A stretch of 64,000 bases of DNA from an uncultured Solirubrobacteraceae bacterium (lineage in GTDB: Bacteria; Actinomycetota; Thermoleophilia; Solirubrobacterales; Solirubrobacteraceae). Below are positions 11,430 through 32,123 of the stretch, one piece after another. The translations under genes and the position numbers were made by a program. Each line of letters starts with the position of its first letter. Within the stretch, counting starts at the first letter, position 1. The notes below the pieces were generated by a model. That model searched no databases. It was given only the letters and a program-made list of their open reading frames with translations, and was not told where the DNA came from. Location: positions 52,745-116,744 of the forward strand of contig CAZPQW010000010.1 in NCBI GenBank assembly GCA_964588985.1. The letters run 5' to 3'.

Positions 11430-13066
11430 CGCAGATGCTCGAGGGTCTGATGCAGGACGACTTCCAGCTGACGCTGCACCACATTCGCCGGGCGATGCGC
11501 ACGAACAGCCCCGACGCGCGCGTGGTCACGCACGTGGAGCCCGGGACGGTGAGATCGGCGACGTTCGCGGAGGTCCACGAGCGGATCGACCGGCTCGCGC
11601 GGGCGCTGGTGCGCCTCGGCGTCGAGCCGGGCGACCGGGTGGGGACGTTCGCGTGGAACAACCAGCGCCACTTCGAGCTGTACTTCGCGATCCCGTGCCT
11701 GGGGGCGGTGCTGCACACGCTGAACATCCGCCTGTTCGAGGAGCAGCTGACGTACATCGTCAACCACGCGGAGGACAGGCTGATCTTCGTCGACGACTCG
11801 CTCGTGCCGATCCTGGAGAAGCTCGCCCCTAGCTTTCAGACGGTCACCCGCTTCGTGGTGATGGGCGACGGCGACGCTGGCTCGCTGCCGAACGCCCTGC
11901 GCTACGAGGACCTGCTGGAGGAGGCAGGCCCGGGCGAGTTCGCCTACCCGGAGGTGGACGAGCGCCAGGCGGCGGCGCTCTGCTACACCAGCGGCACGAC
12001 GGGCAACCCGAAGGGCGTGCTGTACTCGCACCGCTCGATCAGCCTGCACTCGACGGCGACGCTCGTGAAGGACGGCCTGGGACTTGGGCGCGCGGATCGC
12101 GTGTTGGCGGTGGTGCCGATGTTCCATGCGAACGCGTGGGGCCTGCCCCACGGCGCGGCCCTCGCGGGGGCGGACCTGATCCTGCCGGACCGCTTCCTCG
12201 GCGCCGAGCCGCTGGCGGAACTGATCACGGCGGAGCGCCCGACGCTGATGGGATGCGTGCCGACGATCTTCGCGGATCTGCTGCGCCACGCCGAGGCGAA
12301 CCCCGACCTCGACCTGTCGTCGCTGTCGAACGCGACGTGCGGCGGCTCGGCGGTCCCGCGTCAGCTGATGAAGGACTTCGAGGAGCGCCACAGCGTGCGC
12401 ATCTTCCAGGCGTGGGGGATGACGGAGACGAGCCCGGTGGCGACGTTCTCGCGGCCGCTGGAGGGCGAGCACGACGACGCATATTGGAACCAGCGCGCGA
12501 AGCAGGGCCGTCCGCTGCCGTGGGTCGAGCTGAGGCTGACCGACGACGCGGGCGAGGAAGTGCCGTGGGACGGGGAGTCGACGGGCGAGATCGAGGTTCG
12601 CGGCCCCTGGATCGCGTCGGGCTACTTCCGCGACGAGTCGAGCGATGAGAAGTTCGACTCCGGCTGGCTGCGCACGGGGGACATCGCGGCGGTCGACGAG
12701 CGGGGTTTCGTGCAGATCACGGACCGCTCGAAGGACGTGATCAAGTCGGGCGGGGAGTGGATCTCCTCGGTGGAGCTGGAGAACGAGCTGATGGCCCACC
12801 CCGACGTGGTGGAGGCGGCGGTGATCGCGAAGCCCGACGAGCGCTGGGCGGAGCGCCCGCTGTGCTGCGTGGTGCTGCGCGAGCACGCCGACACGAGCGC
12901 GGAGGATCTGCTCGAGCACCTGCGCGGCAGGGTCGCCAAGTGGTGGCTGCCGGACGAGTTCGCGTTCGTCGCGGAGATCCCGAAGACAAGCGTCGGCAAG
13001 TTCGACAAGAAGGTGCTGCGCGGCAGGCTCGCCGAGGACGAGCTCGAGGGCCGCGTGCGTGTGTAG
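11426..13066 (+). CDS. Long-chain fatty acid--CoA ligase (AlkK/DmdB-like)
   Basis: YTSGTTGNPKG, WGMTE, WLRTGD, DRSKDVIKSGGEWISS, PKTSVGKFDK. Confidence 0.93.
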   Translation: MTQMLEGLMQDDFQLTLHHIRRAMRTNSPDARVVTHVEPGTVRSATFAEVHERIDRLARALVRLGVEPGDRVGTFAWNNQRHFELYFAIPCLGAVLHTLNIRLFEEQLTYIVNHAEDRLIFVDDSLVPILEKLAPSFQTVTRFVVMGDGDAGSLPNALRYEDLLEEAGPGEFAYPEVDERQAAALCYTSGTTGNPKGVLYSHRSISLHSTATLVKDGLGLGRADRVLAVVPMFHANAWGLPHGAALAGADLILPDRFLGAEPLAELITAERPTLMGCVPTIFADLLRHAEANPDLDLSSLSNATCGGSAVPRQLMKDFEERHSVRIFQAWGMTETSPVATFSRPLEGEHDDAYWNQRAKQGRPLPWVELRLTDDAGEEVPWDGESTGEIEVRGPWIASGYFRDESSDEKFDSGWLRTGDIAAVDERGFVQITDRSKDVIKSGGEWISSVELENELMAHPDVVEAAVIAKPDERWAERPLCCVVLREHADTSAEDLLEHLRGRVAKWWLPDEFAFVAEIPKTSVGKFDKKVLRGRLAEDELEGRVRV

Positions 13067-14526: not shown

Positions 14527-14590
14527 TTACAGCAGGTTCGGTGTTTTAACCGGACTCACGCACCTCATATGGGTGGTCGATAAGAAACAT

Positions 14591-15862
14591 ATGAGGGCTG
14601 CTGGCAGTGAAGTACGGGTGAGGCGGAGAGGCGACGGTGCACGGCCGGCCGATGACCCGCGCGTGGTGCGCGTGGCGCGTCAGCCGATCCTCGACCGCGA
14701 CGAGCGTCTGATCGGCTACGAGCTGCTGTTCCGGGCGCCCCTGATGGAGGCGGCCGGCGTCCTCGACGACGTCGAGGCGACCGCGACGGTGGTCGTCGAC
14801 GGGCTGCTCGACGTGGGCCTGTTCGACCTGGTGGGCGAGCGTCTGGCGTATGTGAACGTGTCGCGAGAGCTCCTGCTCGGCGTTCGCCCGCTGCCGCTTC
14901 CCGCTCGGCACGTTGTGCTCGAGCTGCTGGAGGACCAGGTGGTCGACGACGAGCTGCTCGGGGTGCTCGACGAGCTGCTCGACCAGCGCTTCACGATCGC
15001 GCTCGACGACTTCCGTCTGACGCCCGAGACCGAGCGGCTGCTGAAGTACGCGCGGATCGTGAAGGTCGACGTGCTCGAGCACACGGGGCAGGCGCTCGAC
15101 GAGCTCGTCGCCCGCCTGAGAGAGCACCGCCCGTCGTTCACCCTGATCGCGGAGAAGGTGGAGACACGGGAGGAGTTCGAGCACTGCCGAGCGCTCGGGT
15201 TTCACGCATTCCAGGGCTACTTCTTCGGCAAGCCCTCGCGTGTGAGGCAGAAGCGTCTGCCGTCCCAGGGGCTGAGCGCGCTGAGCGCGATGGCCGACCT
15301 GAACGCGACCGAGGACGTCGACGAGATCCATCGCATCATCACGCGCGACGCCGGACTGAGCATGCGCGTGCTTCGCTACGCCAACTCGGCTTATGTGTCG
15401 CTCCCGCGGCGGGTGAGATCCGTCCAGGAGGGGCTCGCGTGGCTCGGTGCGATAACCGTGCGGCGCCTCGCGCTGATGGTGGCGCTCGCCGGTGCGCGCG
15501 ACGTGCCGGATGTGCTGTTGGTGACGGCGCTCGTGCGGGCTCGCATGTGCCAGCTTCTGTCAGGGGAGGGCGATCGCGCTTTGGGCGACTCCTACTTCAC
15601 GGTCGGCCTGCTGTCGGTCGCCGACGCGCTCGTGGACGCGCCGATGGAGGACGTGATCGAGCAGCTGCCGCTGCGCCCCGAGATCGCGGTCGCGCTGCTG
15701 CACGGCGGTGGCGAGCTGGGCGAGCTGCTCACCGAGGTGATCGCATACGAGCGCGGCGACTTCCACGCCGCCGAGCGGCTGATTCGACTCCATCCCGAGG
15801 TGGAGCAGGTCTACCGCGACGCGACGACGTGGGCCGACGTCGGCGTCACCGGACTTGTCTGA
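14591..15862 (+). CDS. EAL-HDOD protein (YuxH/PdeH-like c-di-GMP phosphodiesterase)
   Basis: ARQPI..GYELLFR, IALDDF, AEKVET, FQGYFF; HDOD segment LRYANSA; start uncertain (14573-14618). Confidence 0.88.
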   Translation: MRAAGSEVRVRRRGDGARPADDPRVVRVARQPILDRDERLIGYELLFRAPLMEAAGVLDDVEATATVVVDGLLDVGLFDLVGERLAYVNVSRELLLGVRPLPLPARHVVLELLEDQVVDDELLGVLDELLDQRFTIALDDFRLTPETERLLKYARIVKVDVLEHTGQALDELVARLREHRPSFTLIAEKVETREEFEHCRALGFHAFQGYFFGKPSRVRQKRLPSQGLSALSAMADLNATEDVDEIHRIITRDAGLSMRVLRYANSAYVSLPRRVRSVQEGLAWLGAITVRRLALMVALAGARDVPDVLLVTALVRARMCQLLSGEGDRALGDSYFTVGLLSVADALVDAPMEDVIEQLPLRPEIAVALLHGGGELGELLTEVIAYERGDFHAAERLIRLHPEVEQVYRDATTWADVGVTGLV

Positions 15863-15920
15863 GTGGTCTCCGACATAATAGACTGATTCCGTGGTTTGGA
15901 CTGGGGGGTTTGGTGACGGC

Positions 15921-16658
15921 ATGACGCGCGAAGATCGGATCGTGGCGACGTTCGTGGAGCTCGCCGACACGATGATCGACAACTTCGACGTCGTCGAGTT
16001 CCTGCATCGCCTCGTCGAGCGCAGCGTCGAGCTGTTGGACTGCGCCGAGGTCGGACTGCTGCTCGCGAACGCCGAGGGCAGGCTGCAGGTGATGGCATCC
16101 TCGAGCGAGCGCTCTGAGGCGCTGGAGCTGTTGCAGTCTCAGTATGAGGAGGGACCGTGCTTCGATTGCTTTCGCAACGCAGAGGCGGTGTTCAGTGAGG
16201 ACCTGACGGCCGATCGTGGACGCTGGCCTCGCTTCGTGCCCGCCGCGATGGAGGCGGGCATCGGCTCGGTTCACGCGATCCCGATGCGCGTGCGAGGAGA
16301 GAGCGTGGGTGCGCTGAATCTGTTTCGCTCGCAGGTCGGTCGGATCGCGGAGCGAGATCTGACGCTCGGGCAGGGAATGGCGGATATCGCGGCGGTGTCT
16401 CTCCTGCAGGAGCGGGCGGTGCGTGAGACGCGCGGCGTGGTGGCGCAACTGCAGGGCGCTCTGAACAGCAGGGTTCTGATCGAGCAGGCGAAGGGCGTGC
16501 TCGCCGAGCGCGCCCAGGTCAGCGTGGACGCGGCGTTCGCCATCATGCGTGCGTATGCGAGAGCGCAAAACCGCCGCCTGAGCGACACCGCGCGAGATGT
16601 GGTGGAGGGCGGCCTCGACACTCGTGAGCTCATCGAGGCGCTGCCGCCTTTCCGCTAG
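15921..16658 (+). CDS. GAF-ANTAR RNA-binding regulator
   Basis: EGPCFDC GAF motif; QLQGALNSRVLIEQAKGVL..AFAIMRAYAR ANTAR motif. Confidence 0.93.
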   Translation: MTREDRIVATFVELADTMIDNFDVVEFLHRLVERSVELLDCAEVGLLLANAEGRLQVMASSSERSEALELLQSQYEEGPCFDCFRNAEAVFSEDLTADRGRWPRFVPAAMEAGIGSVHAIPMRVRGESVGALNLFRSQVGRIAERDLTLGQGMADIAAVSLLQERAVRETRGVVAQLQGALNSRVLIEQAKGVLAERAQVSVDAAFAIMRAYARAQNRRLSDTARDVVEGGLDTRELIEALPPFR

Positions 16659-17076: not shown

Positions 17077-18162
17077 ATGACCGCGCGGGAGAACGAGAGG
17101 TCGCTGTCTGACCTCGACCGGAGCTCCTCGGAAGCAGACCAAAGCGCGGCGGACGCCGATCAGACACTCTCCGATGCGGACCAGACGGCCTCCGAGCGTG
17201 ATCAGGCGTCGGCTGACAACGATCAGCACGCGGCGGACATGGACCAGCATGCGAGCGAGAGCGTGGGCATCGAAGGAGACGGCGAGTCTATCTACGAGCA
17301 AACCCGCCAGATGCGCGCTGAGAGCACCATCGAGAGGAGCGTGACGAGCCTCGCGCGTGGCCACACCGCGGTAGCGCGCGACGATGTGGCTCGCCGGCGC
17401 GATCAGCTGTCGGCCGCTCGTGACGCTGCGAGCTCGGCGCGTGACGATCTGGCGGCGGCTCTCGACGCCCATGCCGAGAGCTTTGAACGACAGCAGCTGC
17501 TGAACGATGGGGCGGAGCACAACGGTGCGCACCACGTGCGGCTCCGCGCCGCTCATCAGCGTCAGCTGGCGGCTCGAGCACAGGCCGCGGCTCAGCGCAG
17601 GGCTGCCGCTGAAGATCGTGCGCGGGCCGCGAGCGATCGAGACCTGGCGGCGAAGGATCGCCTGGCGTACGCGGCCGAACTTGCGAGCGCCGAAGTGGAC
17701 GAGGTGACCGGTGCGCTACGTCGTCGCGTGGGTCTGGCCGCGCTGCAACGCGAGATGGATCGCGTGCTGCGCACGAAGGAGCAGCTCACGGTTGTGTTCA
17801 TCGACGTCGATGGCCTCAAGCGGGTCAACGACGAGATTGGCCATGCCGCCGGTGATGAGCTGTTGCGGACGGTGGTCGAGTGTGTGACGGAGGAGGTCCG
17901 CTCGTATGACCTCATCCTTCGCTTCGGCGGCGATGAGTTCGTGTGCTCGCTCTCGGGTGACAGCGTGGCGGAGATCGGGGGGCGCTTCGAGCGGATCGCC
18001 ACGCGCTTGAGCGAGGCGATTCCCCACGCGACGATCAGCACGGGCGTGAGCGAGCGCCGCCCGCAGGACACCGTCGGGACGCTGATCGGTCGTGCAGACG
18101 AGGCGATGATCGCGAAGCGCCGCAACGACAGGACCTCATGTCACCCGGAGCAAGGTCGCTGA
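17077..18162 (+). CDS. Diguanylate cyclase with N-terminal coiled-coil repeats
   Basis: FIDVDGLKRVND, RSYD I-site, RFGGDEF; heptad DQxxxDx repeats. Confidence 0.92.
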   Translation: MTARENERSLSDLDRSSSEADQSAADADQTLSDADQTASERDQASADNDQHAADMDQHASESVGIEGDGESIYEQTRQMRAESTIERSVTSLARGHTAVARDDVARRRDQLSAARDAASSARDDLAAALDAHAESFERQQLLNDGAEHNGAHHVRLRAAHQRQLAARAQAAAQRRAAAEDRARAASDRDLAAKDRLAYAAELASAEVDEVTGALRRRVGLAALQREMDRVLRTKEQLTVVFIDVDGLKRVNDEIGHAAGDELLRTVVECVTEEVRSYDLILRFGGDEFVCSLSGDSVAEIGGRFERIATRLSEAIPHATISTGVSERRPQDTVGTLIGRADEAMIAKRRNDRTSCHPEQGR

Positions 18163-18319: not shown

Positions 18320-19306
18320 ATGAACGATGGCGTCCCAACTGAGCACCGGCCGCTCCTCGGCGGCTTTCTCCCAGCAAGTCGTCGCTCGCTCCTGCGAAGC
18401 GGACACAGGTCATATCGGGTTGGCGTGCTGATGTTTGGGCTGCTCTCGAGCCTGCTCCTCGCGAGCAGCGCGTCGGGCGCCGCGGCTCCTGTGGGTCTCG
18501 GGTCGGCGGCGAGCTTCTCTGTGCTGGGCGGCTCGACCGTCACGAACACCGGGCCGACGACGATGTTCGGCGACCTCGGTCTCAGCCCCGGGTCGTCGGT
18601 GACGGGCGCGCCGCACGTGCTCGGCCAGACCCACGTGGACGACGCGGTTGCGATCGGCGCGAAGAACGACCTCACGACCGCCTACAACGACGCCGCGTCG
18701 CGCCCGAGCAACGGCTCCGCGGGAACGGATTTGGCGGGCCAGACCTTCCTGCCCGGCGTGCGCAACGCGAGCAGCTCGCTGCTGCTGTCCTCCGGGGCGG
18801 TGACGCTCGACGCGAGGGGCGACCCGAACGCGGTCTTCATCTTCGAGATCGGCTCGACGCTGATCACCGCGTCGAACACGAGCGTGAGGTTGATAAATGG
18901 CGCGCAGGCGTGCAACGTGTTCTGGCAGGTCGGCTCCTCGGCGACGCTCGGTACGGGCACCCAGTTCGTCGGCACGATCATGGCGCTGGCGACGATCACG
19001 GCGAAGACCGCCGCGACGATCCACGGCAGGCTGCTCGCGAGCACCGGCGCGGTGAACCTCGAAAACAACACCATCACCACTTCCAACTGCGCCTCCAGCG
19101 TGAGCGGAAGCGGTGGCGGGACCGAAACGACGACCACCGGCACAGGGCCGGGAGGCGGAACGACCACGGGGCCGTCGACCGGGCCGAACGCCAAAGCGAA
19201 AGCACGCGCCAAAGCGAGGCGCAGGCGCGCCAAACGCAAACACGGCTCCACGACTGGACCAGCTCGCAAAGCACGGCCGCACCACACCGGCGCGTTCACG
19301 GGCTGA
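18320..19306 (+). CDS. Ice-binding-like (DUF3494) secreted protein with Gly/Thr linker and basic tail ending FTG
   Basis: SFSVLGGSTVTNTGPT, TLDARGDPNAVFIF, ACNVFWQVGSSATLGTG, GRLLA; GAGGAG RBS. Confidence 0.92.
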   Translation: MNDGVPTEHRPLLGGFLPASRRSLLRSGHRSYRVGVLMFGLLSSLLLASSASGAAAPVGLGSAASFSVLGGSTVTNTGPTTMFGDLGLSPGSSVTGAPHVLGQTHVDDAVAIGAKNDLTTAYNDAASRPSNGSAGTDLAGQTFLPGVRNASSSLLLSSGAVTLDARGDPNAVFIFEIGSTLITASNTSVRLINGAQACNVFWQVGSSATLGTGTQFVGTIMALATITAKTAATIHGRLLASTGAVNLENNTITTSNCASSVSGSGGGTETTTTGTGPGGGTTTGPSTGPNAKAKARAKARRRRAKRKHGSTTGPARKARPHHTGAFTG

Positions 19307-20020
19307 GTGGTGCGTCAGCTGGCCGCGCTCATCGTGGCGACGTGCTTGGCGTGCGCCTCGATCACGCCGGCCGTCGCCGCGACTGCGCCACGCGTGCAGG
19401 CGACCCAGGAACTGGCGGTGCTGCTCACGGCCCATGGCGCTCATAAGTCGCCGGAAGCGGGATCGCCACAGGTGATGCTGGTGGCGGCCCGCAGGCCGAT
19501 CACCGGCGAGCGCACGACACTACCGGTGCTCGCCCGCTCGACCGGCGTGGGCGGAGCGGGGTGGCTGGAGGTGATGCTCCCTGGGCGCCCGAACGGGTCG
19601 ACGGGGTGGATCTCCGAGCGCGGGACCCGCGAACTGGTCACGCCGTGGCGCCTGTCGATCGACCTGGCCGCGCGACGGGTGACGGCCTACCGTGACGGGC
19701 GGGTCGCGAGGCGCTTCTCGGCGGTGGTCGGCAAGCCCGCCACGCCCACGCCGACGGGCGAGTTCTTCGTCGAGGAGGCGCTGCGGATGCAGCCGGGCGA
19801 GGCGGGTGGCCCGTTCGCGCTGGCGCTCAGCGCGCGCTCCGACGTGCTCCAGGAATTCGAAGGCGGCCCGGGGCAGATCGCGGTGCACGGCCGCGAGAAC
19901 CTCGGGGGCACGCTCGGCACGGCTGCGTCACACGGGTGTGTGCGGCTTGCGACGGCGAGCATCGAATGGCTCGCGACGCGCATCGGGCCGGGGGTGCCGG
20001 TGGGGATTTACACGAGCTAG
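19307..20020 (+). CDS. Secreted L,D-transpeptidase (YkuD family)
   Basis: VGKPATPTPTG, IAVHG...SHGCVRL catalytic motif; signal peptide. Confidence 0.93.
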   Translation: MVRQLAALIVATCLACASITPAVAATAPRVQATQELAVLLTAHGAHKSPEAGSPQVMLVAARRPITGERTTLPVLARSTGVGGAGWLEVMLPGRPNGSTGWISERGTRELVTPWRLSIDLAARRVTAYRDGRVARRFSAVVGKPATPTPTGEFFVEEALRMQPGEAGGPFALALSARSDVLQEFEGGPGQIAVHGRENLGGTLGTAASHGCVRLATASIEWLATRIGPGVPVGIYTS

Positions 20021-23046: not shown

Positions 23047-24285
23047 TCAGAGCGTCGCCGGCTCGCCGGAGAGCACGGGCAGGCTCGTGGTCTGCTCGGC
23101 CGGCCGCTCCGGCTCGATGCGTTGCCGCCAAGCGAAGGCGAGCGCGAGGGCGAGCGTGACGGACGCGCAACCGAGCGCGAACGCGCTCCCAGATCCGTGG
23201 GCGTCGACGAGCGATCCTCCGAGCGCCGATCCGCCCGACATGCCGGCGATGGTGGCGGCGCGATGCCACGCGAACGCCTCGGTGGTGGTGTCCGACGCGG
23301 CGAGCGCGCCTACGAGCGAGAACTGGGCTGAGAGCATCGGCGCGACGCCGAGTCCCGCGAGCGCGGCCAGCACGCACCCCGCGGCGAGCGAGTGCGCGGC
23401 GATCAGCGGAGCGACCGCGATCGCCATCCCCAGCAGCAGCGCCATGTAGCGTCGGCCGAGCGCGAGATTCCAGCTCCTGGCGGAGTACAGCAGACCACCG
23501 GCCATGCTCCCGACGCTGAACATGGCGAGCATCGGGCCCGACGACCAGCGCGCCCCGATCTCCACGGCGAGCGCGGGCAGCCCGACCTCGACCGCGCCGA
23601 GCACGACGCCGGCGAGCGCGACGGTGACGAGCAGCGTGCGCAGGCCGGGGCTCGCGAGCGCTCCGCCGCGGGTGCGCTTCTGTGTGCTCGCCTGCCAGCC
23701 GCTCGAAAGCTCGGAGGTGGCGAACATGACGGTTCCGCACAGCGTGATCCCCGCGCACAGCAGCACCGCGGCGGACGGCGAGAGGAGCCCGGCGGTGGCC
23801 CCGACGAGCAGCGGTCCGAGCGTCCAGATGATCTCCTGGGTGGTCGCGTCGAGCGTGTAGGCGATCTCGAGCGTCTCGGGGTCCTTCGCGATCACCGACC
23901 ACAGGGCGCGAATGCAGCCCGCGATCGGTGGCGTGGCGGCGCCCGCGAGGGCCGCCGCGGCGACGAGGTTCGCGACCGGCATCTCAGCCCGCGCCATTGC
24001 CACGAGGATCACGAGCAGCGTCGCCTGGACGGCGGCCGCGGGGATCAGCACCGGCGCCTGTCCGATCCGGTCGACGAGCGCGCCGAGCGGTGGGCCCATG
24101 ACGGCCCCGGCGAGCGCGAACGCGCCGACCGCGAGGCCGGCGTCGAGGAACGATCCGGTCTGCCCGTGGACGAGCAGCACGATCGCGAGCGAGAACATGC
24201 CTGACGGCAGGCGGCCGAGCACCGCGCTGATCAGCAGCCGGCTGCAGCCCGGGATCGAGAGCAGTGCGCGGTAGCGGGCGATCAC
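23047..24285 (-). CDS. MFS transporter
   Basis: 12 TM pattern, GALVDRIG motif A. Confidence 0.92.
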   Translation of the reverse strand: MIARYRALLSIPGCSRLLISAVLGRLPSGMFSLAIVLLVHGQTGSFLDAGLAVGAFALAGAVMGPPLGALVDRIGQAPVLIPAAAVQATLLVILVAMARAEMPVANLVAAAALAGAATPPIAGCIRALWSVIAKDPETLEIAYTLDATTQEIIWTLGPLLVGATAGLLSPSAAVLLCAGITLCGTVMFATSELSSGWQASTQKRTRGGALASPGLRTLLVTVALAGVVLGAVEVGLPALAVEIGARWSSGPMLAMFSVGSMAGGLLYSARSWNLALGRRYMALLLGMAIAVAPLIAAHSLAAGCVLAALAGLGVAPMLSAQFSLVGALAASDTTTEAFAWHRAATIAGMSGGSALGGSLVDAHGSGSAFALGCASVTLALALAFAWRQRIEPERPAEQTTSLPVLSGEPATL

Positions 24286-24292
24286 GGCGCGC

Positions 24293-25570
24293 TCACGCGG
24301 CCGTGGGGCACTGGACTGCGCAGTCCTCGTCCTCGACGGGGCGCAGCTCGCCCATCTCCGCGAGCTCCTCGAGCGCCGCTATGAGCATGTCGATCTCGGC
24401 GTCGGTGTTGGCGGCGGTGAGCTGCACGCGGAAGCCGACCTCGTCGCGGGGAACCAGCGGGTAGGCGGCGAGCGTTACGTACACGCCACGGTCGAACAGC
24501 AGCTGGCCCACCTCCGCGATCCGCGTGTCGTCGCGCAGCGGGATCTCAACGATCGGCAGCCCTGAGTTGTTCGGGGTTGTGATGCCCAGCCGCGTGAGGC
24601 AGTCGAGCACCCGCTTGGTGTGCCCGTAGACGATCTCGCGCAGCTGTTCGCCGCGGCACTCGTTGACGTCGAAGCCGGCGAGCACTGTGGCGAGCGAAGC
24701 GACGGGGGAGGGCCCGGAGTAGAGGTAGGGCGCGGCCATGATCTTCAGCAGCTCCTTGATCTCGGTGGGGCACGCGATGAACGCGAGCAGCGAGGAGTAG
24801 GCCTTGGAGAAGCCGCCGACGAGGATGAGGTTGTCGTAGGTCTCGCCGCAGTAGCGCACGATGCTGTTGCCGCGCATCCCGTATGGGCTGGACTCGGCCG
24901 GGTCGCGTTCGCCGATCACGCCGAAGCCGTGCGCGTCGTCCACGTACAGCAGCGCGTCGTGTTCGCGTGCGACCTGGGCGAACGCCGGGATGTCGGGCGG
25001 GTTGCCGGTCATGCTGTTGACGCCGTCCATGCACACGAGCTTGCTCGCGCGTCGCTCGGAGCGCAGCAGTTCGTCGAGGTGGTCGGGATCTTCGAACTGG
25101 AAGCGCTTGACGCTCGCGCCGTGCACCTTGGCGAGCTGGCAGCCGTCGTAGATGGTCTTGTGCGAGCGCGAGTCGAGGAAGATCGTGCAGCGGCGTCCGG
25201 CGAGCGCGGGGATGACGGCCATGTGGATGTGCGTGATCGTCGGCAGCACCAGCGAGTCGGGGCTGCCGAGCAGGCCGGTGAGGCGCTCCTCGATCTGCTC
25301 GTAGAGGATCGGGCTGCCGAGCAGCCGCGACCAGCTCGGGTGCGTGCCCCACGCGTCGAGGTAGGCGGGAACCGCATCGATGATGTCGCGCTCGAGGTCG
25401 AAGCCGAGATAGTTGCAGGACGCGAAGTCGGCGAGCCACTGCGAGCCGACGCGGATCATGCGCCCGTCGATCTCGTCGATCACCGCGTCCATCATCGGAT
25501 GGGATTTCTTCAGCGTGTCGAGATCGCGCAGCGCCTCGGGGACGCTCGCGAGCAGCGTGGTGGCGCTCAC
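24293..25570 (-). CDS. PLP-dependent alpha-oxoamine synthase (BioF fold), SxtA4-like subfamily
   Basis: DFASCNYLG, WGTHPSWSR, DGVNSMTG, VDDAHGFG, FSKAYSS (PLP Lys), SGPSPVASLA. Confidence 0.88.
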   Translation of the reverse strand: MSATTLLASVPEALRDLDTLKKSHPMMDAVIDEIDGRMIRVGSQWLADFASCNYLGFDLERDIIDAVPAYLDAWGTHPSWSRLLGSPILYEQIEERLTGLLGSPDSLVLPTITHIHMAVIPALAGRRCTIFLDSRSHKTIYDGCQLAKVHGASVKRFQFEDPDHLDELLRSERRASKLVCMDGVNSMTGNPPDIPAFAQVAREHDALLYVDDAHGFGVIGERDPAESSPYGMRGNSIVRYCGETYDNLILVGGFSKAYSSLLAFIACPTEIKELLKIMAAPYLYSGPSPVASLATVLAGFDVNECRGEQLREIVYGHTKRVLDCLTRLGITTPNNSGLPIVEIPLRDDTRIAEVGQLLFDRGVYVTLAAYPLVPRDEVGFRVQLTAANTDAEIDMLIAALEELAEMGELRPVEDEDCAVQCPTAA

Positions 25571-27969
25571 GAGGTGGGCTCCGTCGTGGCGGTCTCAGTC
25601 GAAGCTTGGCTGCGCTCGTGTTGCGCGTTTGACACGGGCTCGGATGCGGTGAGGCCGGACGGTGGGTCGACCGCCGCGGGTAGGTCGGCTGGGAGCTCGG
25701 GCTCGGCGCGCAGCAGCTGCTCGAGCTCGGCGGCGGGCAGGGGCTTCGACAGCGCGTAGCCCTGGACGAGCTCGCAGCGGTTGACGACGAGCGAGCTCCA
25801 CGTCTGCTGGTCCTCGATTCCCTCGGCGACGACGCGGATGCCGATGCTGTGCGCCAGGCGGATGGTCGCCTCGACGATCGCGCAGTCCACCGGGTCAGAT
25901 GTCATCCGCCCGACGAACGAGCGGTCGATCTTGACCTCTCCGACGGGCAGCGCCTTGAGGTGCGTGAGCGAGGAGTAGCCGGTGCCGAAGTCGTCGAGCG
26001 ACAGGCCGAGGCCCAGCTCGCCGAGCTGGGCGAGCACGTCGCCGACGCGGACGGGGTCGGCGAGCACCATGTTCTCGGTGACCTCGAGCACGAGCACGTC
26101 GGGAGACAGCTCGCGTGCGGCGAGCATCGATGCGACCTCCGCGGGGAACTGCGTGTCCTGCAGGTCGGCGACGGTGGTGTTGACCGCTACGTGGAGCATC
26201 AGCCCGGAGTCGCGCCACAGCTTGATCTGGTCGAGCGCGAGCTCGAGCATCTTGCGGGTCAGCGCGCGGCCGAGTCCCGCCTGCTCCGCGAGCGTGACGA
26301 ACTCCGCGGGCGAGACCATGCCGCGGGTGGGGTGGCGCCAGCGCACGAGTGCCTCTACGCCCACTATCCGTCGCGTGGTGGCGTCCGCCTTGGGCTGGAA
26401 GTGCGCCTCGATCTCACCGGCCTCCAACGCGTGGGAGAGCTCGCCCGCGAGGGTGAGGCGCTCGAGCGAGTGGTTGTCGCGCTCGCGGGCGTAGCAGGCG
26501 CGTCCGGACTGTGCGGTCTTGGCCTCGTACATCGCGATGTCCGCATGCTGCATGAGCTGTTCGTCGTCGCTCGCGTCGTCTGGGTAGATCGCGATGCCGA
26601 TGCTTGCGGTCACGCGCAGGCTGAGGCCCTTGATCGGGAACGGCTCGCCGATCGCCGCGAGGATCTTGTCCGCCACGTGCTCGGCGCTTTGCGTGTCGCA
26701 TGCGTCGCCCAGCAGGACGCCGAACTCATCCCCTCCGAGGCGCGCGGCGGTGTCGCCGGAGCGGAGCACCGCGCGCAGTCGCTCGCCGGCCTGGCGCAGC
26801 AGGTGGTCGCCGGCGTCGTGGCCGAGGGTGTCGTTGAGCTCCTTGAAGTGGTCGAGGTCGACGATCAGGAGGGCCATGCTGGTGTTCGACGCTGCGCTTG
26901 CGACTATCCCGTCGCGGAGGCGTCGCAGGAAGTCGCGACGGTTCGGCATCGAGGTGAGGTCGTCCGTGAGCGCCTGGCGTCGGGTTTCGGCGAGCGCGCG
27001 AACGTCGCGGAAGGCGAGGCCGGTACGTCCGAAGGCCGCGAACATGGTCGCGATCGCGAGCCCCATCGCGAGGGGGTCGAGGCGGCTGAAGTGGTCGTAG
27101 ATCAGCAGGCCGAGGGCGCTGGCGGCGAACGCTGCGGGGATCCCGAGCACGGCGCCGGTCGGCATCGTGTCCACCTCCAGCGTCACACGTGGCTGCCACG
27201 CCGCGATCGCGAGCAGCATCACGCCGATCTCATACGCGAAGTTCGTGGCGGCGCTCGGTGCCGACGCGCCGCCCGCCACCTGCAGCGCGTAGAGGCAGTC
27301 TGCGGCCGCGAGGGCGATGAAGCCGACGCCGAGCATCGACCACATGCGGTCCATCCGCCAGCCGCGCAGGGCGAGCACGCCGACGATCAGGGCCGCGAGC
27401 AGCAGGTCGCAGATCGGGTAGGCCATCTCGGTGATGACCGCGGCGGTGTTGCCCGACACCGACGCCATCACGGGGCGCAGCACGATCGCCGCGCCGATCG
27501 CAGCGACTCCCAGCCCGGCGATGATCCCGTCCAGCCAGATCCTCGCCGGCACGCGACGCTCTCGCACGCGTGCGAGGCCAAGGATGCCTATGTAGCACGC
27601 CGGGTAGAGCGTGAGCCACATCCCGTCGCAGATCGATGGGATCGGCGGGTTGGGCAGGTGTTCCATCCAGGCCGCCCACAGGACGTTGCCGAGGCCGTAG
27701 ATGGAGATTCCGAACGCGAAGATCGTCCACGAGCGGCGTGCCTCGGTGCTGCGAACCGCCCGCCAGCTCACGATCAACCCCACGAGGATGTAGACAGCCG
27801 AGGTGATCCAGTCTCGGATCGGCTGTTCGACGGCACGCCCTCCGATCCCGAACGCGGCGTGTATGCCGGTGGCCGCGACGAGGCTGATCACGAGACCGGT
27901 CGCCACCCCCAACAGGCGGCGCTCGCCTGGCCGGAGGGTCGACGAGAGCGGTAGCAGGGTTGTACGCAT
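25567..27969 (-). CDS. Membrane-bound GGDEF-EAL protein with a multi-TM N-terminal sensor
   Basis: About 10 TMs; DLDHFKELND, RLGGDEF, VEALVR, DDFGTGYSSL, EGIE, QGY; start set at ATG 27969. Confidence 0.93.
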   Translation of the reverse strand: MRTTLLPLSSTLRPGERRLLGVATGLVISLVAATGIHAAFGIGGRAVEQPIRDWITSAVYILVGLIVSWRAVRSTEARRSWTIFAFGISIYGLGNVLWAAWMEHLPNPPIPSICDGMWLTLYPACYIGILGLARVRERRVPARIWLDGIIAGLGVAAIGAAIVLRPVMASVSGNTAAVITEMAYPICDLLLAALIVGVLALRGWRMDRMWSMLGVGFIALAAADCLYALQVAGGASAPSAATNFAYEIGVMLLAIAAWQPRVTLEVDTMPTGAVLGIPAAFAASALGLLIYDHFSRLDPLAMGLAIATMFAAFGRTGLAFRDVRALAETRRQALTDDLTSMPNRRDFLRRLRDGIVASAASNTSMALLIVDLDHFKELNDTLGHDAGDHLLRQAGERLRAVLRSGDTAARLGGDEFGVLLGDACDTQSAEHVADKILAAIGEPFPIKGLSLRVTASIGIAIYPDDASDDEQLMQHADIAMYEAKTAQSGRACYARERDNHSLERLTLAGELSHALEAGEIEAHFQPKADATTRRIVGVEALVRWRHPTRGMVSPAEFVTLAEQAGLGRALTRKMLELALDQIKLWRDSGLMLHVAVNTTVADLQDTQFPAEVASMLAARELSPDVLVLEVTENMVLADPVRVGDVLAQLGELGLGLSLDDFGTGYSSLTHLKALPVGEVKIDRSFVGRMTSDPVDCAIVEATIRLAHSIGIRVVAEGIEDQQTWSSLVVNRCELVQGYALSKPLPAAELEQLLRAEPELPADLPAAVDPPSGLTASEPVSNAQHERSQASTETATTEPTS

Positions 27970-28360
27970 GGCGGGTGTATCGGTCGCAAAGACCGATTGA
28001 ATTAACACTTTCTTGACTTTCGACTGAGATCCGCTGTAGCTCATGCTTCGGCGATCCGATGACCCGAGAGCCAAGTGTCCCGCTCATGCAAATGAGTCAG
28101 GTAAGGCACAGATCGAGCTACCAATGACACGGAGCGGGTCAGTGCCGTCCGTTTTGTCAATCGAACGGGCGCATGAGGGTTCGAACCAACGGAAAAAGTC
28201 GGAGACGCGCCTCGACTTAAGGGTCTAGACCCACGAATCTTCCAGGTACGCGCACGCGGGTCTGATGCCTGCTCAAGCGCCGAGTCCCGCAGGGCGCCCT
28301 GGCCCGAACGGACGACAGAGTCCCTCAATACTGGCGATATAGACGATTAGGCGGGAACGG

Positions 28361-29344
28361 ATGGCTTTTATATACAAGACACGTACGGTGACTCCACGCT
28401 TGCGTCCCGGTCCCAACGGATTGCCGCGTGGTCAAGTGACGGAGATTCAGCGCAGCCGAATGTTGTCCGCTGCGGTCGAGGCGGTGGACGAGGTCGGGTA
28501 CTCGCGTATGACGGTCGCGCAGGTGATCAGCCGGGCGAGGGTTTCGCGAAAGACGTTTTACGACGTGTTCGCCGACCGCGAGGACTGCTTCCTGGCGGCG
28601 TTCGAACAGGCCCTCACGCAGGCGGAGAACCTCGCGAGGGAGGCCTACGAGCGCGAGACCGGCTGGCGCGACGGCGTTCGCTCGGCGCTGGCGAGGCTGC
28701 TGATGTTCATGGACGCCGAGCCGGGTCTCGCGAAGCTCTGCGTGGTCGAGGCGCTTGCCGCGGGCGACCGCGTGCTCGAGCGGCGCGCGCAGGCGCTCGA
28801 CGAGCTGGCGGCGGTGATCGACCAGGGCCGCTTCCTCACGAACGCCACCCGCGAACCGCCGGAGGTCACGGCCGAAGGCATCGTGGGCGGCGTCTTCGCG
28901 GTGATCCACACGCGTCTGCTCGAGGGCGGCAAGGAGCCGCTGACGGATCTGCTCGGCTCGCTGATGAGCATGATCGTGCTTCCGTACCTCGGGGCTCGGG
29001 CGGCGAGCCGTGAGCTGGCCAGGCCGGCGCTCGAGGTCCCGCGCGACAAACGTCCGCGTGGTCTCACACGGACCAAAGACCCGCTCGAAGGCCTCAACAT
29101 GCGCCTCACCTACAGGACGGTGCGCGTGCTGATGGTGATCGCGGAGCACCCGGGGGCGAGCAACCGCGAGATCGCCGAAGGCTCGGGCATCGTCGATCAG
29201 GGCCAGATCTCAAAGCTCCTGAACCGCCTCGCGCGCCTGAACCTGGTCGAGAACCTCGGCGAGGGCCAGGAGAAGGGCGCGGCGAACGCGTGGCACCTGA
29301 CGGCGCGTGGCGCTCAGGTGGAGCGGGCGACTCGTCCGCGCTGA
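28361..29344 (+). CDS. TetR/AcrR regulator with an extra C-terminal winged HTH
   Basis: MTVAQVISRARVSRKTFYDVF; C-terminal HPGASNREIAEGSG..QGQISKLLNRL..WHLTARG. Confidence 0.9.
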   Translation: MAFIYKTRTVTPRLRPGPNGLPRGQVTEIQRSRMLSAAVEAVDEVGYSRMTVAQVISRARVSRKTFYDVFADREDCFLAAFEQALTQAENLAREAYERETGWRDGVRSALARLLMFMDAEPGLAKLCVVEALAAGDRVLERRAQALDELAAVIDQGRFLTNATREPPEVTAEGIVGGVFAVIHTRLLEGGKEPLTDLLGSLMSMIVLPYLGARAASRELARPALEVPRDKRPRGLTRTKDPLEGLNMRLTYRTVRVLMVIAEHPGASNREIAEGSGIVDQGQISKLLNRLARLNLVENLGEGQEKGAANAWHLTARGAQVERATRPR

Positions 29345-29456: not shown

Positions 29457-32123
29457 TTGCTGCGCTTCCTTCTGTGGCGGATGCTGGGCCTGCTGTCCGT
29501 CCTCCTCGGCCTCTCGTTGATCGCATGGCTCCTCGGCGGCGGACCGGGGAGGGCGCTGCGCGGGGACACGGCCGGCAGCCCCATCCATCTGAGCATCGGC
29601 GCGCTCGCCCGAGCCATCGCGCGTGTCCTGTCTTCGAGCCTGCGGTGGGCGCCGATTGGTGACGTGTGGCTGCACGGAGCGCTGCCGGTGCTCGTCGGAG
29701 CTGCTTGTGCCGTTATCGCCGGGGCGCGGTGGATGGCACGGCACAGGCGTCGCTACGTGCGTGTGCGAATCGAGGTCTATCGAACCGACCATGCAGAGCC
29801 AGACGCGGTGGCGCGAGTGTTCGAGGCGTTGCACAAGCGATTGCTGCGGCGCTGGTGGCGGCGGCTACTGCAGGGCCAGCCGTCGGTCGCACTCGAGATC
29901 CATCACGACCAAGCCTCAACCGAGCACGCCGCATCCGAGACGCCGTACCGCGCCTGGCTCGCGGTCAGCTGCCCGCAGGGCCTGGAGCGGATGGTGCATG
30001 CCGCATTGCAGGGCGCATATCCAAACTGCCGTCTGAGCACGGCACAGCAGCAGGTCGGCAACCCGCCAGCGGTTCTTCGCCTCAAGAAGCACGCGGAATT
30101 CACCAAGCGGGTCAAGGGGCTCAATCTCTTCGAGCGAGAAGGCCCATCGTCGACCGACCGGCTGCTGACCGTCATGGGCGCATGCGGCGAGCCGGCATTC
30201 GTGCAGTTCGCGCTCACGCCCACCCCGGCCTTCTTCGAGGCGATCGCCAAGCGCCTTTACAAGCATCACGAGGCGAATCTCTCGCGCGAGCGTAGAGAGC
30301 ACCTGATCGTGCGCGACCGCTCAATGGTCGAGGACGCCGAGCTGCGTGGAGGCCTCGACGTCCAGCACAAGCCCCTGTTCTTCCTCGACCTGCGCGTGGT
30401 GGGTCCCAATCGCACGGTCTGCGAGCGGATCGCGTCCGAGCTGCGGGTTCAGGGCGCCGAGAACCGCCTCGTCGAGCGTGGCACGTCGCTCCGTCACGGT
30501 GTGCTCGGCCTCTACGGCCGGCGCATACGGCGCGGCGAGGGCAATCCGATCCCCTCCTTCAACAAGGGCGTCTTCGCCACGTCGGAGCTGGCCGCCATGT
30601 GGCAGCTTCCATCGAGCGACTTCATGACTGTGCCGGTTGCACGGTCAGGGGTACCGCTCGCGCCTGCGCCTCCAGGGATATTGCGCCCGGGGGAGGGCCG
30701 AGGGACTCTGCGCGACGCCATCGGTCCCGTCTCGATCCACCCGGAGATGCGCAAGCAGAACGTGGCCGTCCCAGGCACTGTCGAGCAGGGTAAGTCCAGC
30801 TTCCTCGTTGCAACCGTCGCCGAGGATCTGCTGCGCGAGCGCTGCGCTGTGATCGTGCTCGACCCCAAGGGCGACGCGGCCGAGGCGACGGTCAGCCTCG
30901 TGCCCGAGGGGAGGACCTGCACTCTGCTGGACTTTGCGCACCCGACCTGCGGCTTCAACCCGCTTGCGGTCGATGCTCCCGCAGACGTGATCGCGGATTA
31001 CGTCGTCGCCGCGCTCAAGAACCTCTTCACCAATGCGGATATGAGGGCCTCGTCTGATCGGCATTTGCGTAACGCGATAATTGCGGTTCTCGCCTACGAC
31101 CGATGCTCCAGTCTGTGGGACGCGGCGCGTCTGCTCTCGGTCGGCGAGGAGGGGTATGCGTATCGAAGACGCGTGGGAGCGCGGGTGCGCATGCTTCCGG
31201 CGTTCAAGGAGATCTCCGAGTTCTTTACAGCGGAGCTCACCACACAGCTGGCCGACTCGCGCAGCACCACCACCGCGAAGCTCGACGCGCCGGTCAACAA
31301 GCTGGCGCGGTTGCTCAGCTCGCCATCGATCAAGCGGGTTCTCCTGAACGACTCGCTACGGGTCGATTTCGACCGGGTGATCGCCGAGCAAGAGGTGCTC
31401 GTCGTCAAGGGTGCGATGGGCGCGATGGGCGCCGGAAACACGTCGGTGCTGATGCAACTGCTGGTCGGAATGCTCGACGCTGCGCTCGCCCGTCAGCAGG
31501 ACCTCCTACCGGAGCACGAGCGTGTGGCGGTGGCCCTGAAGATCGACGAGGCGCCCTTGGTGATCAACCGGGGATTCGCTGAAACGATGGCGTTGAAGCG
31601 CTCCGCGGGCTTGGAGACGGTCGCCTGCTGGCAGACGGACGCCCAGTGGGTCGAACGCGAGGTGCGCGACCAGCTGGACGCGCTGTTCGCGCACCGCGTG
31701 TATTTCGCCACGGCGTCCGTTCGTGACGCTCGCTCGGCCGCTGATCTGCACATGACCGAGTACTCCGACATGGTGCGGCCGGGTATCGCACGCCTGTCGA
31801 GCCTCGGACACCCCGATGTCCGTCTTCATCTCCCCAAGCACCACGCGATCGTCAGCTGGAGCACCGCACAGGGTCGGCAGCCGTCGTTCGTCGCGCAGAC
31901 CATTCCCCTGCGGAGCGACCGCGAGCGGCTGGCCTGGCACGCGTCCCGTCAGCACGAACGCGGAGCACGTCATCTCGTCGACTTGCGCCAGCCGCATTGG
32001 GATCGCACGCCCGACGTAGCGCCGCCACCCGTGGCCCGTCCCGAGCCACGTGGGCTCCTCGCGCCGAACGCACGCGAGGCCTTCCGTGCGAGCGAGTCCG
32101 ATTTGGCGCGCGAGCGCTCATGA
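29457..32123 (+). CDS. VirD4/TraD-like type IV coupling ATPase (FtsK-HerA superfamily)
   Basis: N-terminal TMs, Walker A GTVEQGKS, VLDPKGD, GFNPL, Walker B LKIDEA, ACWQ; GAGGAG RBS with TTG start. Confidence 0.8.
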   Translation: MLRFLLWRMLGLLSVLLGLSLIAWLLGGGPGRALRGDTAGSPIHLSIGALARAIARVLSSSLRWAPIGDVWLHGALPVLVGAACAVIAGARWMARHRRRYVRVRIEVYRTDHAEPDAVARVFEALHKRLLRRWWRRLLQGQPSVALEIHHDQASTEHAASETPYRAWLAVSCPQGLERMVHAALQGAYPNCRLSTAQQQVGNPPAVLRLKKHAEFTKRVKGLNLFEREGPSSTDRLLTVMGACGEPAFVQFALTPTPAFFEAIAKRLYKHHEANLSRERREHLIVRDRSMVEDAELRGGLDVQHKPLFFLDLRVVGPNRTVCERIASELRVQGAENRLVERGTSLRHGVLGLYGRRIRRGEGNPIPSFNKGVFATSELAAMWQLPSSDFMTVPVARSGVPLAPAPPGILRPGEGRGTLRDAIGPVSIHPEMRKQNVAVPGTVEQGKSSFLVATVAEDLLRERCAVIVLDPKGDAAEATVSLVPEGRTCTLLDFAHPTCGFNPLAVDAPADVIADYVVAALKNLFTNADMRASSDRHLRNAIIAVLAYDRCSSLWDAARLLSVGEEGYAYRRRVGARVRMLPAFKEISEFFTAELTTQLADSRSTTTAKLDAPVNKLARLLSSPSIKRVLLNDSLRVDFDRVIAEQEVLVVKGAMGAMGAGNTSVLMQLLVGMLDAALARQQDLLPEHERVAVALKIDEAPLVINRGFAETMALKRSAGLETVACWQTDAQWVEREVRDQLDALFAHRVYFATASVRDARSAADLHMTEYSDMVRPGIARLSSLGHPDVRLHLPKHHAIVSWSTAQGRQPSFVAQTIPLRSDRERLAWHASRQHERGARHLVDLRQPHWDRTPDVAPPPVARPEPRGLLAPNAREAFRASESDLARERS

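Follow-up and report, generated by a model that had tools for sequence, protein, structure and literature searches.

A stand-alone alpha-oxoamine synthase linked to a membrane GGDEF-EAL protein and a transporter: a candidate signalling cassette in actinobacteria

Alpha-hydroxyketone quorum sensing is carried out by CqsA/CqsS in Vibrio and by LqsA/LqsS in Legionella. A comparable gene arrangement was found in a 64,000-nucleotide stretch of contig CAZPQW010000010.1 from an uncultured Solirubrobacteraceae bacterium (hereafter the window), where genes for a membrane sensor protein with GGDEF and EAL domains, a pyridoxal 5′-phosphate (PLP)-dependent alpha-oxoamine synthase (AOS) and a transporter of the major facilitator superfamily (MFS) follow one another (Table 1). 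The best-supported reading of this cassette, to which we give an even chance of being right, is that of a signalling unit which makes a small molecule, exports it where a transporter is present, and senses it.

The likeness to CqsA/CqsS and LqsA/LqsS lies in the gene of an AOS-family PLP enzyme placed beside that of a polytopic membrane sensor, and in an apparent one-enzyme pathway. This layout was retrieved in 45/45 loci of one comparison and in 15/15 of another, and is a matter of resemblance, not homology. The sensor is a histidine kinase, as in CqsA/CqsS, in the cassettes of family f18 and of loci L053 and L128. However, the cassette AOS falls outside the CqsA/LqsA family, with 77.9 bits against a cut-off of 428 for the NCBIfam model of that type (NF005526) and 41.6 bits for CqsA structures against 138.7 for the best solved relative. 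An identity with CqsA/LqsA was rejected on these scores, and no protein of the window's own genome exceeded the cut-off. The cassette further differs from CqsA/CqsS in its sensor domain of 10 helices, for which there is no Pfam model, in the GGDEF-EAL output of the window lineage, in the transporter that forms part of it, and in that synthase and sensor can be a single polypeptide.

A second described system, RpfF/RpfR of Burkholderia cenocepacia, produces and reads the signal BDSF, and its receptor binds and regulates the synthase physically (PMC6361424). As in the window, a signal synthase gene stands beside a GGDEF-EAL receptor gene, and in RpfF/RpfR the autoinducer is read via cyclic di-GMP (c-di-GMP); the fusions found among the cassettes would imply the same kind of synthase-receptor contact. 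In contrast, RpfF is an enzyme other than an AOS, its signal is a fatty acid and RpfR is a soluble protein binding the signal through a PAS domain; the abstract of PMC6361424 describes neither an RpfF-RpfR fusion nor a transporter. The cassette thus resembles CqsA/CqsS and LqsA/LqsS in layout, and in the window lineage it would share c-di-GMP readout and synthase-receptor contact with RpfF/RpfR; it is a member of none of these families.

In actinomycetes, c-di-GMP controls development and antibiotic production, and the inputs of the membrane-bound GGDEF-EAL proteins are described as unknown in the passages of PMC6205966 consulted. The same passages list CdgF and CdgC of Streptomyces venezuelae as 10TM-PAS-PAC-GGDEF-EAL proteins with unknown signals. 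Compared by layout only, their domain order is that of the PAS-type partners of the AOS in most lineages; unlike these partners, CdgF and CdgC are not reported there to be linked to an AOS. The literature search retrieved no account of GGDEF-EAL proteins with a linked or fused AOS, supplementary files lying outside the search.

Conservation of the gene cassette

AOS orthologues were collected from 201 genomes of the class (E ≤ 1e-60) and from 401 genomes of the phylum (E ≤ 1e-100, a tally that includes genome G312, which entered no other part of the analysis). An orthologue was present in 9/201 class genomes and absent from all 13 other genomes sampled from the window's own family; at the phylum level, 35/401 genomes and 20/249 genera carried one, with a concentration in five families. 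Across five actinobacterial families, orthologues were 52-89% identical. Such a patchy distribution fits an accessory signalling trait, not a housekeeping function.

In the class sample, the AOS gene was directly followed by that of a membrane GGDEF-EAL protein in the 8 other carriers (8/8). A scan of species genomes yielded 36 loci, from Thermoleophilia metagenome-assembled genomes (66-89% identity), from cultured strains of Actinoplanes and Paractinoplanes (62-64%) and from one metagenome-assembled genome of the Acidimicrobiia, and every one of them (36/36) retained the sensor, whole or as a remnant, including two truncated copies and one decayed copy. Overall, the AOS stood beside a sensor protein of the same membrane-domain family in 45/45 loci and was accompanied by an MFS gene in 42/45, the three lacking ones (L028, L036 and L054) stopping at a contig edge. 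Fifteen further loci, from four other families, all had a membrane-domain gene within ~2.2 kb of the AOS gene (15/15). The preliminary description of the window had proposed to look for conservation of the GGDEF-EAL and MFS neighbours across actinobacteria, and the outcome was strongly positive.

Gene order varied around this constant content. The order sensor-AOS-MFS was found in the window and 8 loci, AOS-sensor-MFS_3 in 8 class loci and 17 loci of the species-genome scan, and sensor-AOS-MFS_3 in 9 Actinoplanes loci. L056 displayed AOS-MFS_3 and an oppositely oriented sensor gene, and L053 the order AOS-kinase-MFS_3-sensor. Among the 15 further loci, AOS-sensor-MFS_3 occurred in 4, the same three genes in other orders in 4 (L128 adds a HisKA kinase), and in-frame fusions in 2 (L131 and L132). 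By these comparisons, the cassette is a real unit under selection. Two decayed copies were also encountered: a second copy in genome G117 (L021), with the AOS in three frames, an internal TGA and the GGDEF-EAL gene in pieces, and L037, where the GGDEF-EAL gene is spread over three frames and the MFS gene is partial.

Close relatives encode sensor and AOS as a single protein of ~1200 aa. The window arrangement recurs elsewhere either as a split with a 4-bp overlap (the window, L022, L023 and L049) or in frame (L024-L027 and L054). In the window, the sensor gene ends with ...ACC TCG TGA and the GTG start of the AOS gene overlaps it as GTGA, and the MFS gene starts with GTG after a gap of 7 bases (24286-24292) behind the AOS stop. 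The three coupled minus-strand genes of the preliminary description, with their GTGA overlap and 7-bp gap, were recovered coordinate for coordinate. Because the split is found with identical frames in three other genomes (L022, L023 and L049), it is not an assembly error. Among the best 120 matches to longer proteins, 118 bear PF00990, PF00563 and PF00155 together and 111 are at least 1190 aa long; the domain order was GGDEF, EAL, AOS in 107/107 fusion proteins checked.

A second type of fusion, PAS-GGDEF-EAL-AOS of ~1500 aa, forms a cluster that includes RefSeq proteins of cultured Streptomyces, and the two large genomes of L131 and L132 harbor the same in-frame arrangement. Since the Streptomyces-type and the Solirubrobacteraceae fusions occupy different sub-clades of the AOS tree, the fusion of sensor and AOS arose at least twice. 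Over-long ORFs of other loci (e.g. L029, L033 and L041) were rejected as fusions, their frames being different and the calls being artefacts of GC3-based gene prediction.

The synthase among oxoamine synthases

The AOS carries the marks of its superfamily, namely a Pfam match above cut-off, the Schiff-base lysine K256 and the PLP-binding residues H137, D211 and H214. Its residues H137, D182, S186, D211, H214 and K256 align with H133, E175, S179, D204, H207 and K236 of Escherichia coli BioF, which we take to serve the PLP core of that enzyme. As this catalytic core is invariant among the orthologues compared, the protein is predicted to be an enzyme, not a relic.

Profile scoring placed it below every NCBIfam equivalog cut-off: 201.7 bits against 426.45 for bioF (TIGR00858), 180.2, 164.5 and 134.8 bits against 500, 640 and 670 for the three serine palmitoyltransferase (SPT) models NF047599, NF047600 and NF047603, 155.1 against 460 for KBL, and 105.6 against 338.55 for ALAS, in addition to the CqsA/LqsA model given above. 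The highest-scoring solved relatives were a Thermus BioF/KBL-like enzyme (138.7 bits) and a bacterial SPT (3a2b, 128.9 bits). The own genome, a 3.41-Mb assembly in 48 contigs, encodes two further AOS paralogues with 27-28% identity to the cassette enzyme; the one on contig C19 is a true BioF (456.5 bits against 426.45) adjoining bioD, and the other is SPT/KBL-like. An SPT identity was rejected because the AOS stays under all three SPT cut-offs.

To place the enzyme, relatives were gathered by an exhaustive, profile-free search, which gave 467 representatives at E ≤ 1e-30. In the closest non-orthologues, at 35-43% identity, the AOS is the C-terminal domain of long proteins. The architectures sampled with Pfam comprised AMP-binding + PP-binding + AOS, KS-AT-DH-ACP-AOS, a protein of 1235 aa with an SxtA-like layout (AprA_N + WH_AprA + AprA-MT2-like + PP-binding + AOS) and, at 60% identity, a PAS-GGDEF-EAL-AOS protein of 1500 aa. 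An AMP-binding domain stood at the start of 33/76 full-domain representatives, as labelled by BLAST.

A quick IQ-TREE analysis (LG+G4) was run on 76 rows, one of which (L018_B, on a branch 3.39 long) is a sensor protein picked in error and was ignored. As CqsA, LqsA, ALAS, KtmB and named SxtA rows are absent from it, the distance to CqsA was read from the profile and PDB scores alone. The sensor-linked AOS formed a single clade of 27 rows with an SH-aLRT of 99, and its nearest neighbours were a few other stand-alone AOS. A clade of 37 rows with AOS domains of assembly lines lay beside these, the branching order among the groups being unresolved in the tree. Together, 72 rows were split by a branch with an SH-aLRT of 100 from E. 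coli BioF, E. coli Kbl, the BioF of the own genome and its SPT-like paralogue. A BioF identity was rejected on this branch, on a score below half of the cut-off and on the presence of a true BioF elsewhere; in the profile scores, the paralogues and the tree alike, the clustering with BioF that the preliminary description had named as the outcome contrary to its proposal was not observed.

The four motifs quoted in that description were all located in the AOS: DFASCNYLG at 48-56, WGTHPSWSR (of the pattern WGTHPSW(S/T)R) at 74-82, SKAYSS at 255-260 and SGPSPVASLA at 285-294. They are nearly identical, letter by letter, in the fatty-acyl-AMP-ligase-type FAAL-ACP-AOS proteins, in polyketide synthase (PKS)-AOS proteins and in an AprA/SxtA-like protein with a methyltransferase (MT), an acyl carrier protein and an AOS, and different in BioF and Kbl. 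The window enzyme thus shares identity, motifs and a superclade apart from BioF/Kbl with the assembly-line AOS. It differs from them in being stand-alone or fused to a signalling protein, in having no carrier protein, ligase or methyltransferase, and in belonging to a clade of its own.

These results bear on the earlier assignment of the enzyme as SxtA4-like instead of BioF, which holds at the level of the superclade (shared motifs and the SH-aLRT 100 branch) and does not hold below it, the sensor-linked clade not being nested within the assembly-line domains. The domain order of SxtA is MT-(GNAT)-ACP-AONS (PMC12371840). Neither a carrier domain nor an MT or GNAT domain was detected by Pfam and ORF clustering in the AOS protein or in the cassette, and an SxtA-type AONS domain was rejected by architecture on this ground. 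The sole stand-in for SxtA in the tree, the AprA-like MT-ACP-AOS protein P0266, was 43% identical to the AOS and fell in the neighbouring assembly-line clade. Nothing in the sequence appears to point to arginine as the substrate, the kinship with SxtA being judged from P0266, not from a named SxtA.

The sensor protein and its exchangeable parts

In the sensor protein, an RxxD I-site lies five residues upstream of the GGDEF motif, and the EAL-domain motifs EALVR, EVTE, DDFGTGYS, KIDR, EGIE and QGY were all found. Each motif looked for was therefore present, in line with the earlier statement that both domains are intact. By its active-site, I-site and EAL motifs, the protein is predicted to be a composite GGDEF-EAL c-di-GMP enzyme.

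Its first 360 residues gave no Pfam match at E ≤ 0.01. This membrane domain nevertheless aligns across the c-di-GMP and histidine-kinase partners of the AOS, with invariant W, G, PS, YP, D, G, YP, D, Y and A (alignment A1). An AlphaFold2 model of residues 36-365 (pLDDT 79.5, pTM 0.77) displayed 10 long helices, in agreement with the roughly 10 transmembrane segments counted in the preliminary description. A Foldseek search of this model against the PDB returned nothing at E ≤ 0.001, the best E-value being 0.09. A wide search with VIA-align retrieved only generic bundles of 7TM receptors or rhodopsins (Z at most 11.6, rmsd at least 3.8 Å, ~180-195 residues); a Z of 11.6 falls short of the caution line that the tool sets for helical bundles, and these matches were not taken as kinship. 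Protein Atlas gave only clusters of Actinomycetota, plus a weak MASE4/MASE3 lead at 0.82. Prediction of a complex between the GGDEF-EAL part (residues 365-800) and the AOS, with separate alignments, had a score of 0.00, a 'no answer' that speaks neither for nor against contact. The own genome encodes a second membrane-domain GGDEF-EAL protein, of the PAS type, in a 1061-aa frame on contig C19 (68062-71244, L094); it is 43.5% identical to the partner in L015 and has no AOS nearby on a contig that stops 220 bp downstream.

Comparison with the AOS-first loci (order AOS-sensor-MFS_3) revealed an exchange of partners. The window AOS is nested among them in the tree and is 77-78% identical to those of L031 and L032. 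Against the same two loci, the window sensor is only 37-38% identical in its GGDEF-EAL part and 27-31% in its membrane part, and it has no PAS domain. Within the AOS-first loci, whose sensors are of the PAS type, the parts co-vary, with 67-86% identity for the AOS, 57-78% for GGDEF-EAL and 46-65% for the N-terminal part. The window transporter (MFS_1) is unrelated by BLASTP to the MFS_3 (PF05977) of the other arrangements and is kept behind the AOS in the seven closest loci with enough sequence; its subfamily assignment remained below cut-off (TIGR00900, 49.9 against 319.6 bits). In the window lineage, the earlier sensor thus gave way to another member of its membrane-domain family and the earlier MFS to an unrelated one, so that a triad of the same kind was rebuilt. 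Such a replacement in kind is difficult to account for if the three functions are not required jointly.

The transmitter of the sensor varies as well. In family f18, the AOS is paired in 5/5 loci with a histidine kinase composed of the membrane domain, HisKA_3 and HATPase_c, an architecture confirmed by Pfam in two of them, the other three being 48-72% identical over their full length. No response regulator was present among the 6 ORFs scanned beside these HisKA_3 kinases. In L053 and L128, a membrane-domain-PAS-HisKA kinase stands beside the AOS. Since the transmitter is either GGDEF-EAL or a kinase while the membrane domain stays, the constant pair is the AOS and the membrane sensor domain, not the c-di-GMP output. 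The earlier proposal of a readout through c-di-GMP instead of a histidine kinase is therefore lineage-specific: it could hold for the window lineage and does not extend to f18, L053 and L128, where kinases with the same membrane domain adjoin the AOS. As a separate observation, the AOS of L122 (genome G436) is flanked by both forms of sensor, one a HisKA_3 kinase and the other a convergent PAS-less GGDEF-EAL protein, whose membrane domain is 39% identical to that of the window.

Proposed mechanism, alternatives and neighbouring genes

Under the make-and-sense reading, the AOS would condense an amino acid with an acyl thioester into an alpha-aminoketone, or into a hydroxyketone or pyrazine derived from it, and the MFS would carry this product through the membrane. 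The product could then be perceived by the 10-helix domain of the protein encoded alongside, whose transmitter it would switch. With a bifunctional GGDEF-EAL transmitter, as predicted in the window, the readout would be the cellular level of c-di-GMP. Synthase and receptor probably form one physical complex; the window has them split, and close relatives have them as one fused protein. The three proteins would act in the unit as presumptive synthase, exporter and receptor; we infer the product, the direction of transport, the binding of the product by the membrane domain and the sign of the c-di-GMP response.

Several observations weigh against this reading. When 570 called ORFs from the 45 loci were clustered, only the three known members were widely shared, and no conserved acyl-activating enzyme, carrier protein or tailoring reductase belonged to the cassette. 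No MFS gene was found in the 5 kinase-type f18 loci, the fold searches with Foldseek and VIA-align provided no significant match from which a ligand site in the membrane domain could be predicted, and diffusible signals are not usually made by a synthase covalently joined to the matching receptor. The membrane domain also occurs in 99/201 class genomes against 9/201 for the AOS, and all 12 AOS-less membrane-domain loci examined (12/12) were without an AOS nearby, the domain being partnered there with kinases (3), GGDEF-EAL (7) or GGDEF (2). As it is far commoner than the AOS, it is a general sensor family, of which only some branches can serve the AOS product. Finally, the own genome has 14 EAL and 25 GGDEF matches, and because 3 of the 14 EAL proteins bear the membrane domain, its repeated recruitment by chance seems unlikely but not impossible.

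The commonness of the membrane domain without any AOS also suits an alternative that we consider unlikely but worth real weight, in which the sensor controls a biosynthesis without feedback. The membrane domain would read an external or membrane cue and the AOS would be the controlled output, its product being an exported antibiotic, chelator or osmolyte that is not self-sensed. In the fusions the AOS comes last, at the very C-terminal end behind the transmitter domains, where an output is usually found, and MFS_3 is named 'transmembrane secretion effector' in Pfam. However, the same AOS pairs with histidine kinases, which normally do not regulate enzymes directly, pathways of a single enzyme are characteristic of signals, not of secondary metabolites, and autoinducer systems typically have their synthase beside a sensor.

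A role in membrane-lipid homeostasis is rather improbable. Here the AOS would make a long-chain, sphingoid-like aminoketone, the MFS would flip or export it, and the membrane domain would monitor the lipid in the bilayer. In its favor, SPTs are among the best solved matches of the AOS, the sensor domain lies wholly within the membrane in the AlphaFold2 model, and the nearest non-orthologues are fused to fatty-acyl-AMP-ligase-like and carrier domains. Yet the distribution is patchy, with no orthologue in the other genomes sampled from the family, none of the SPT equivalog cut-offs is reached, a separate SPT/KBL-like paralogue exists in the genome, and downstream sphingolipid genes were not seen among the 20 neighbouring ORFs.

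PLP-based input domains have a precedent in the MocR/GabR regulators, and AOS enzymes are obligate dimers. The AOS might thus be an input domain that binds an amino acid or acyl-CoA and regulates GGDEF-EAL while making no signal, a highly improbable option even though many species have the AOS in covalent fusion with the signalling protein and an obligate dimer could set the dimer state of the cyclase. The complete and invariant catalytic set and the extreme sequence conservation (62-89% across classes) fit a working enzyme instead, and in most lineages the AOS is a separate gene accompanied by a transporter. That the AOS is an ordinary enzyme of biotin synthesis (BioF) or threonine degradation (KBL) standing by chance beside signalling genes is almost certainly wrong: bioF is its top NCBIfam model and the source annotations of relatives read '8-amino-7-oxononanoate synthase', but the score is less than half of that cut-off, the real BioF adjoins bioD on another contig, the tree sets the AOS superclade apart from the BioF and Kbl of E. 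coli and from the own BioF with an SH-aLRT of 100, and the sensor linkage is kept in every locus examined.

If a signalling cassette is the right reading, a wider claim can be put forward tentatively, as possible but doubtful. The cassette would represent a new class of actinobacterial cell-cell signal, present also in cultured Streptomyces and Actinoplanes, in which an alpha-aminoketone or derivative made by the AOS addresses a new family of 10-helix receptors feeding c-di-GMP turnover or two-component phosphorelays, synthase and receptor being one polypeptide in some species. It would offer a genetically linked candidate ligand source for one actinomycete membrane sensor family. If true, actinobacterial signalling would gain a new chemical class, with a naturally occurring example of signal synthase and receptor in one protein, and the AOS-less genomes with the receptor family (99 against 9 of 201 in the class) would include 'orphan' listeners to the signals of their neighbours. 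Versions of the cassette in cultured Actinoplanes, Paractinoplanes and Streptomyces make the idea directly testable.

Table 1. Features of the cassette and its divergent neighbour in the window
Feature	Position	Strand	Evidence
MFS transporter gene, 412 aa, putative product exporter	23047-24285	-	PF07690 (MFS_1) 81 bits, cut-off 33.4
AOS gene, 425 aa, PLP-dependent, conserved core of the cassette	24293-25570	-	PF00155 (Aminotran_1_2) 102.7 bits, cut-off 19.7
Predicted membrane sensor/c-di-GMP enzyme, 835-aa ORF, 10-helix membrane domain-GGDEF-EAL	25567-28074	-	Pfam and motifs
N-terminal 10-helix membrane sensor domain, residues ~36-350	27025-27969	-	alignment A1 and AlphaFold2 model
GGDEF (diguanylate cyclase) domain, residues 368-523, RxxD I-site	26506-26973	-	PF00990 155.1 bits; motif RSGDTAARLGGDEF
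EAL (c-di-GMP phosphodiesterase) domain, residues 545-778	25741-26442	-	PF00563 225.7 bits
GTGA stop/start overlap of sensor gene and AOS gene; position of the in-frame junction in relatives	25567-25570	-	
Divergent regulator, TetR_N and C-terminal MarR-type winged helix-turn-helix	28361-29344	+	TetR_N 35.9 bits, MarR_2 30.7 bits

The true start of the sensor gene is likely the ATG at 27969, where the alignment of its relatives begins. A scan of 20 ORFs around the cassette (8753 to 41429) revealed no biotin or sphingolipid gene and no PKS gene, as the preliminary description had stated for the vicinity, and the closest acyl-activating gene encodes an AMP-binding enzyme at 11426-13066, ~10 kb past the MFS end of the cassette. 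The divergent TetR gene of that description is present in the window, but it is linked to the cassette only in the closest relatives (3/36 loci of the species-genome scan); this TetR_N-MarR regulator is thus a lineage-specific neighbour outside the conserved cassette. It combines two DNA-binding domains in one protein and is 94-95% identical in L022, L023 and L049 only, which exceeds the conservation of the cassette proteins. The 888-aa ORF after it (29457-32123), without a Pfam match, is kept in the same three loci.

Beyond the cassette, the neighbourhood is rich in c-di-GMP genes, with a partial EAL + HDOD protein at 14573-15862 and a GGDEF protein at 17077-18162, between which a GAF-ANTAR regulator is encoded (15891-16658). 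A 328-aa protein at 18320-19306 gave a strong Ice_binding match (PF11999, 198.9 bits) and is directly followed by a YkuD L,D-transpeptidase (19307-20020). The segment 20000-23000, directly downstream of the MFS gene, has a G+C content of 0.647 against ~0.69 and contains overlapping, ambiguous ORFs with a weak third-position bias, Pfam matches being limited to AbiEi-like and MerR-like ORFs; it may be inserted or decaying DNA.

Lineage-specific genes were also noted at other loci. In L015, four head-to-tail ORFs of 86 aa, all of one family, lie upstream of the cassette (695-1834). In the Actinoplanes loci (L044-L055), a luciferase-like monooxygenase (PF00296) and a membrane protein of 730-1010 aa with a weak DUF2157 match each recur upstream of the sensor gene, in 5-6 of 9 loci, and could be accessories specific to that lineage.

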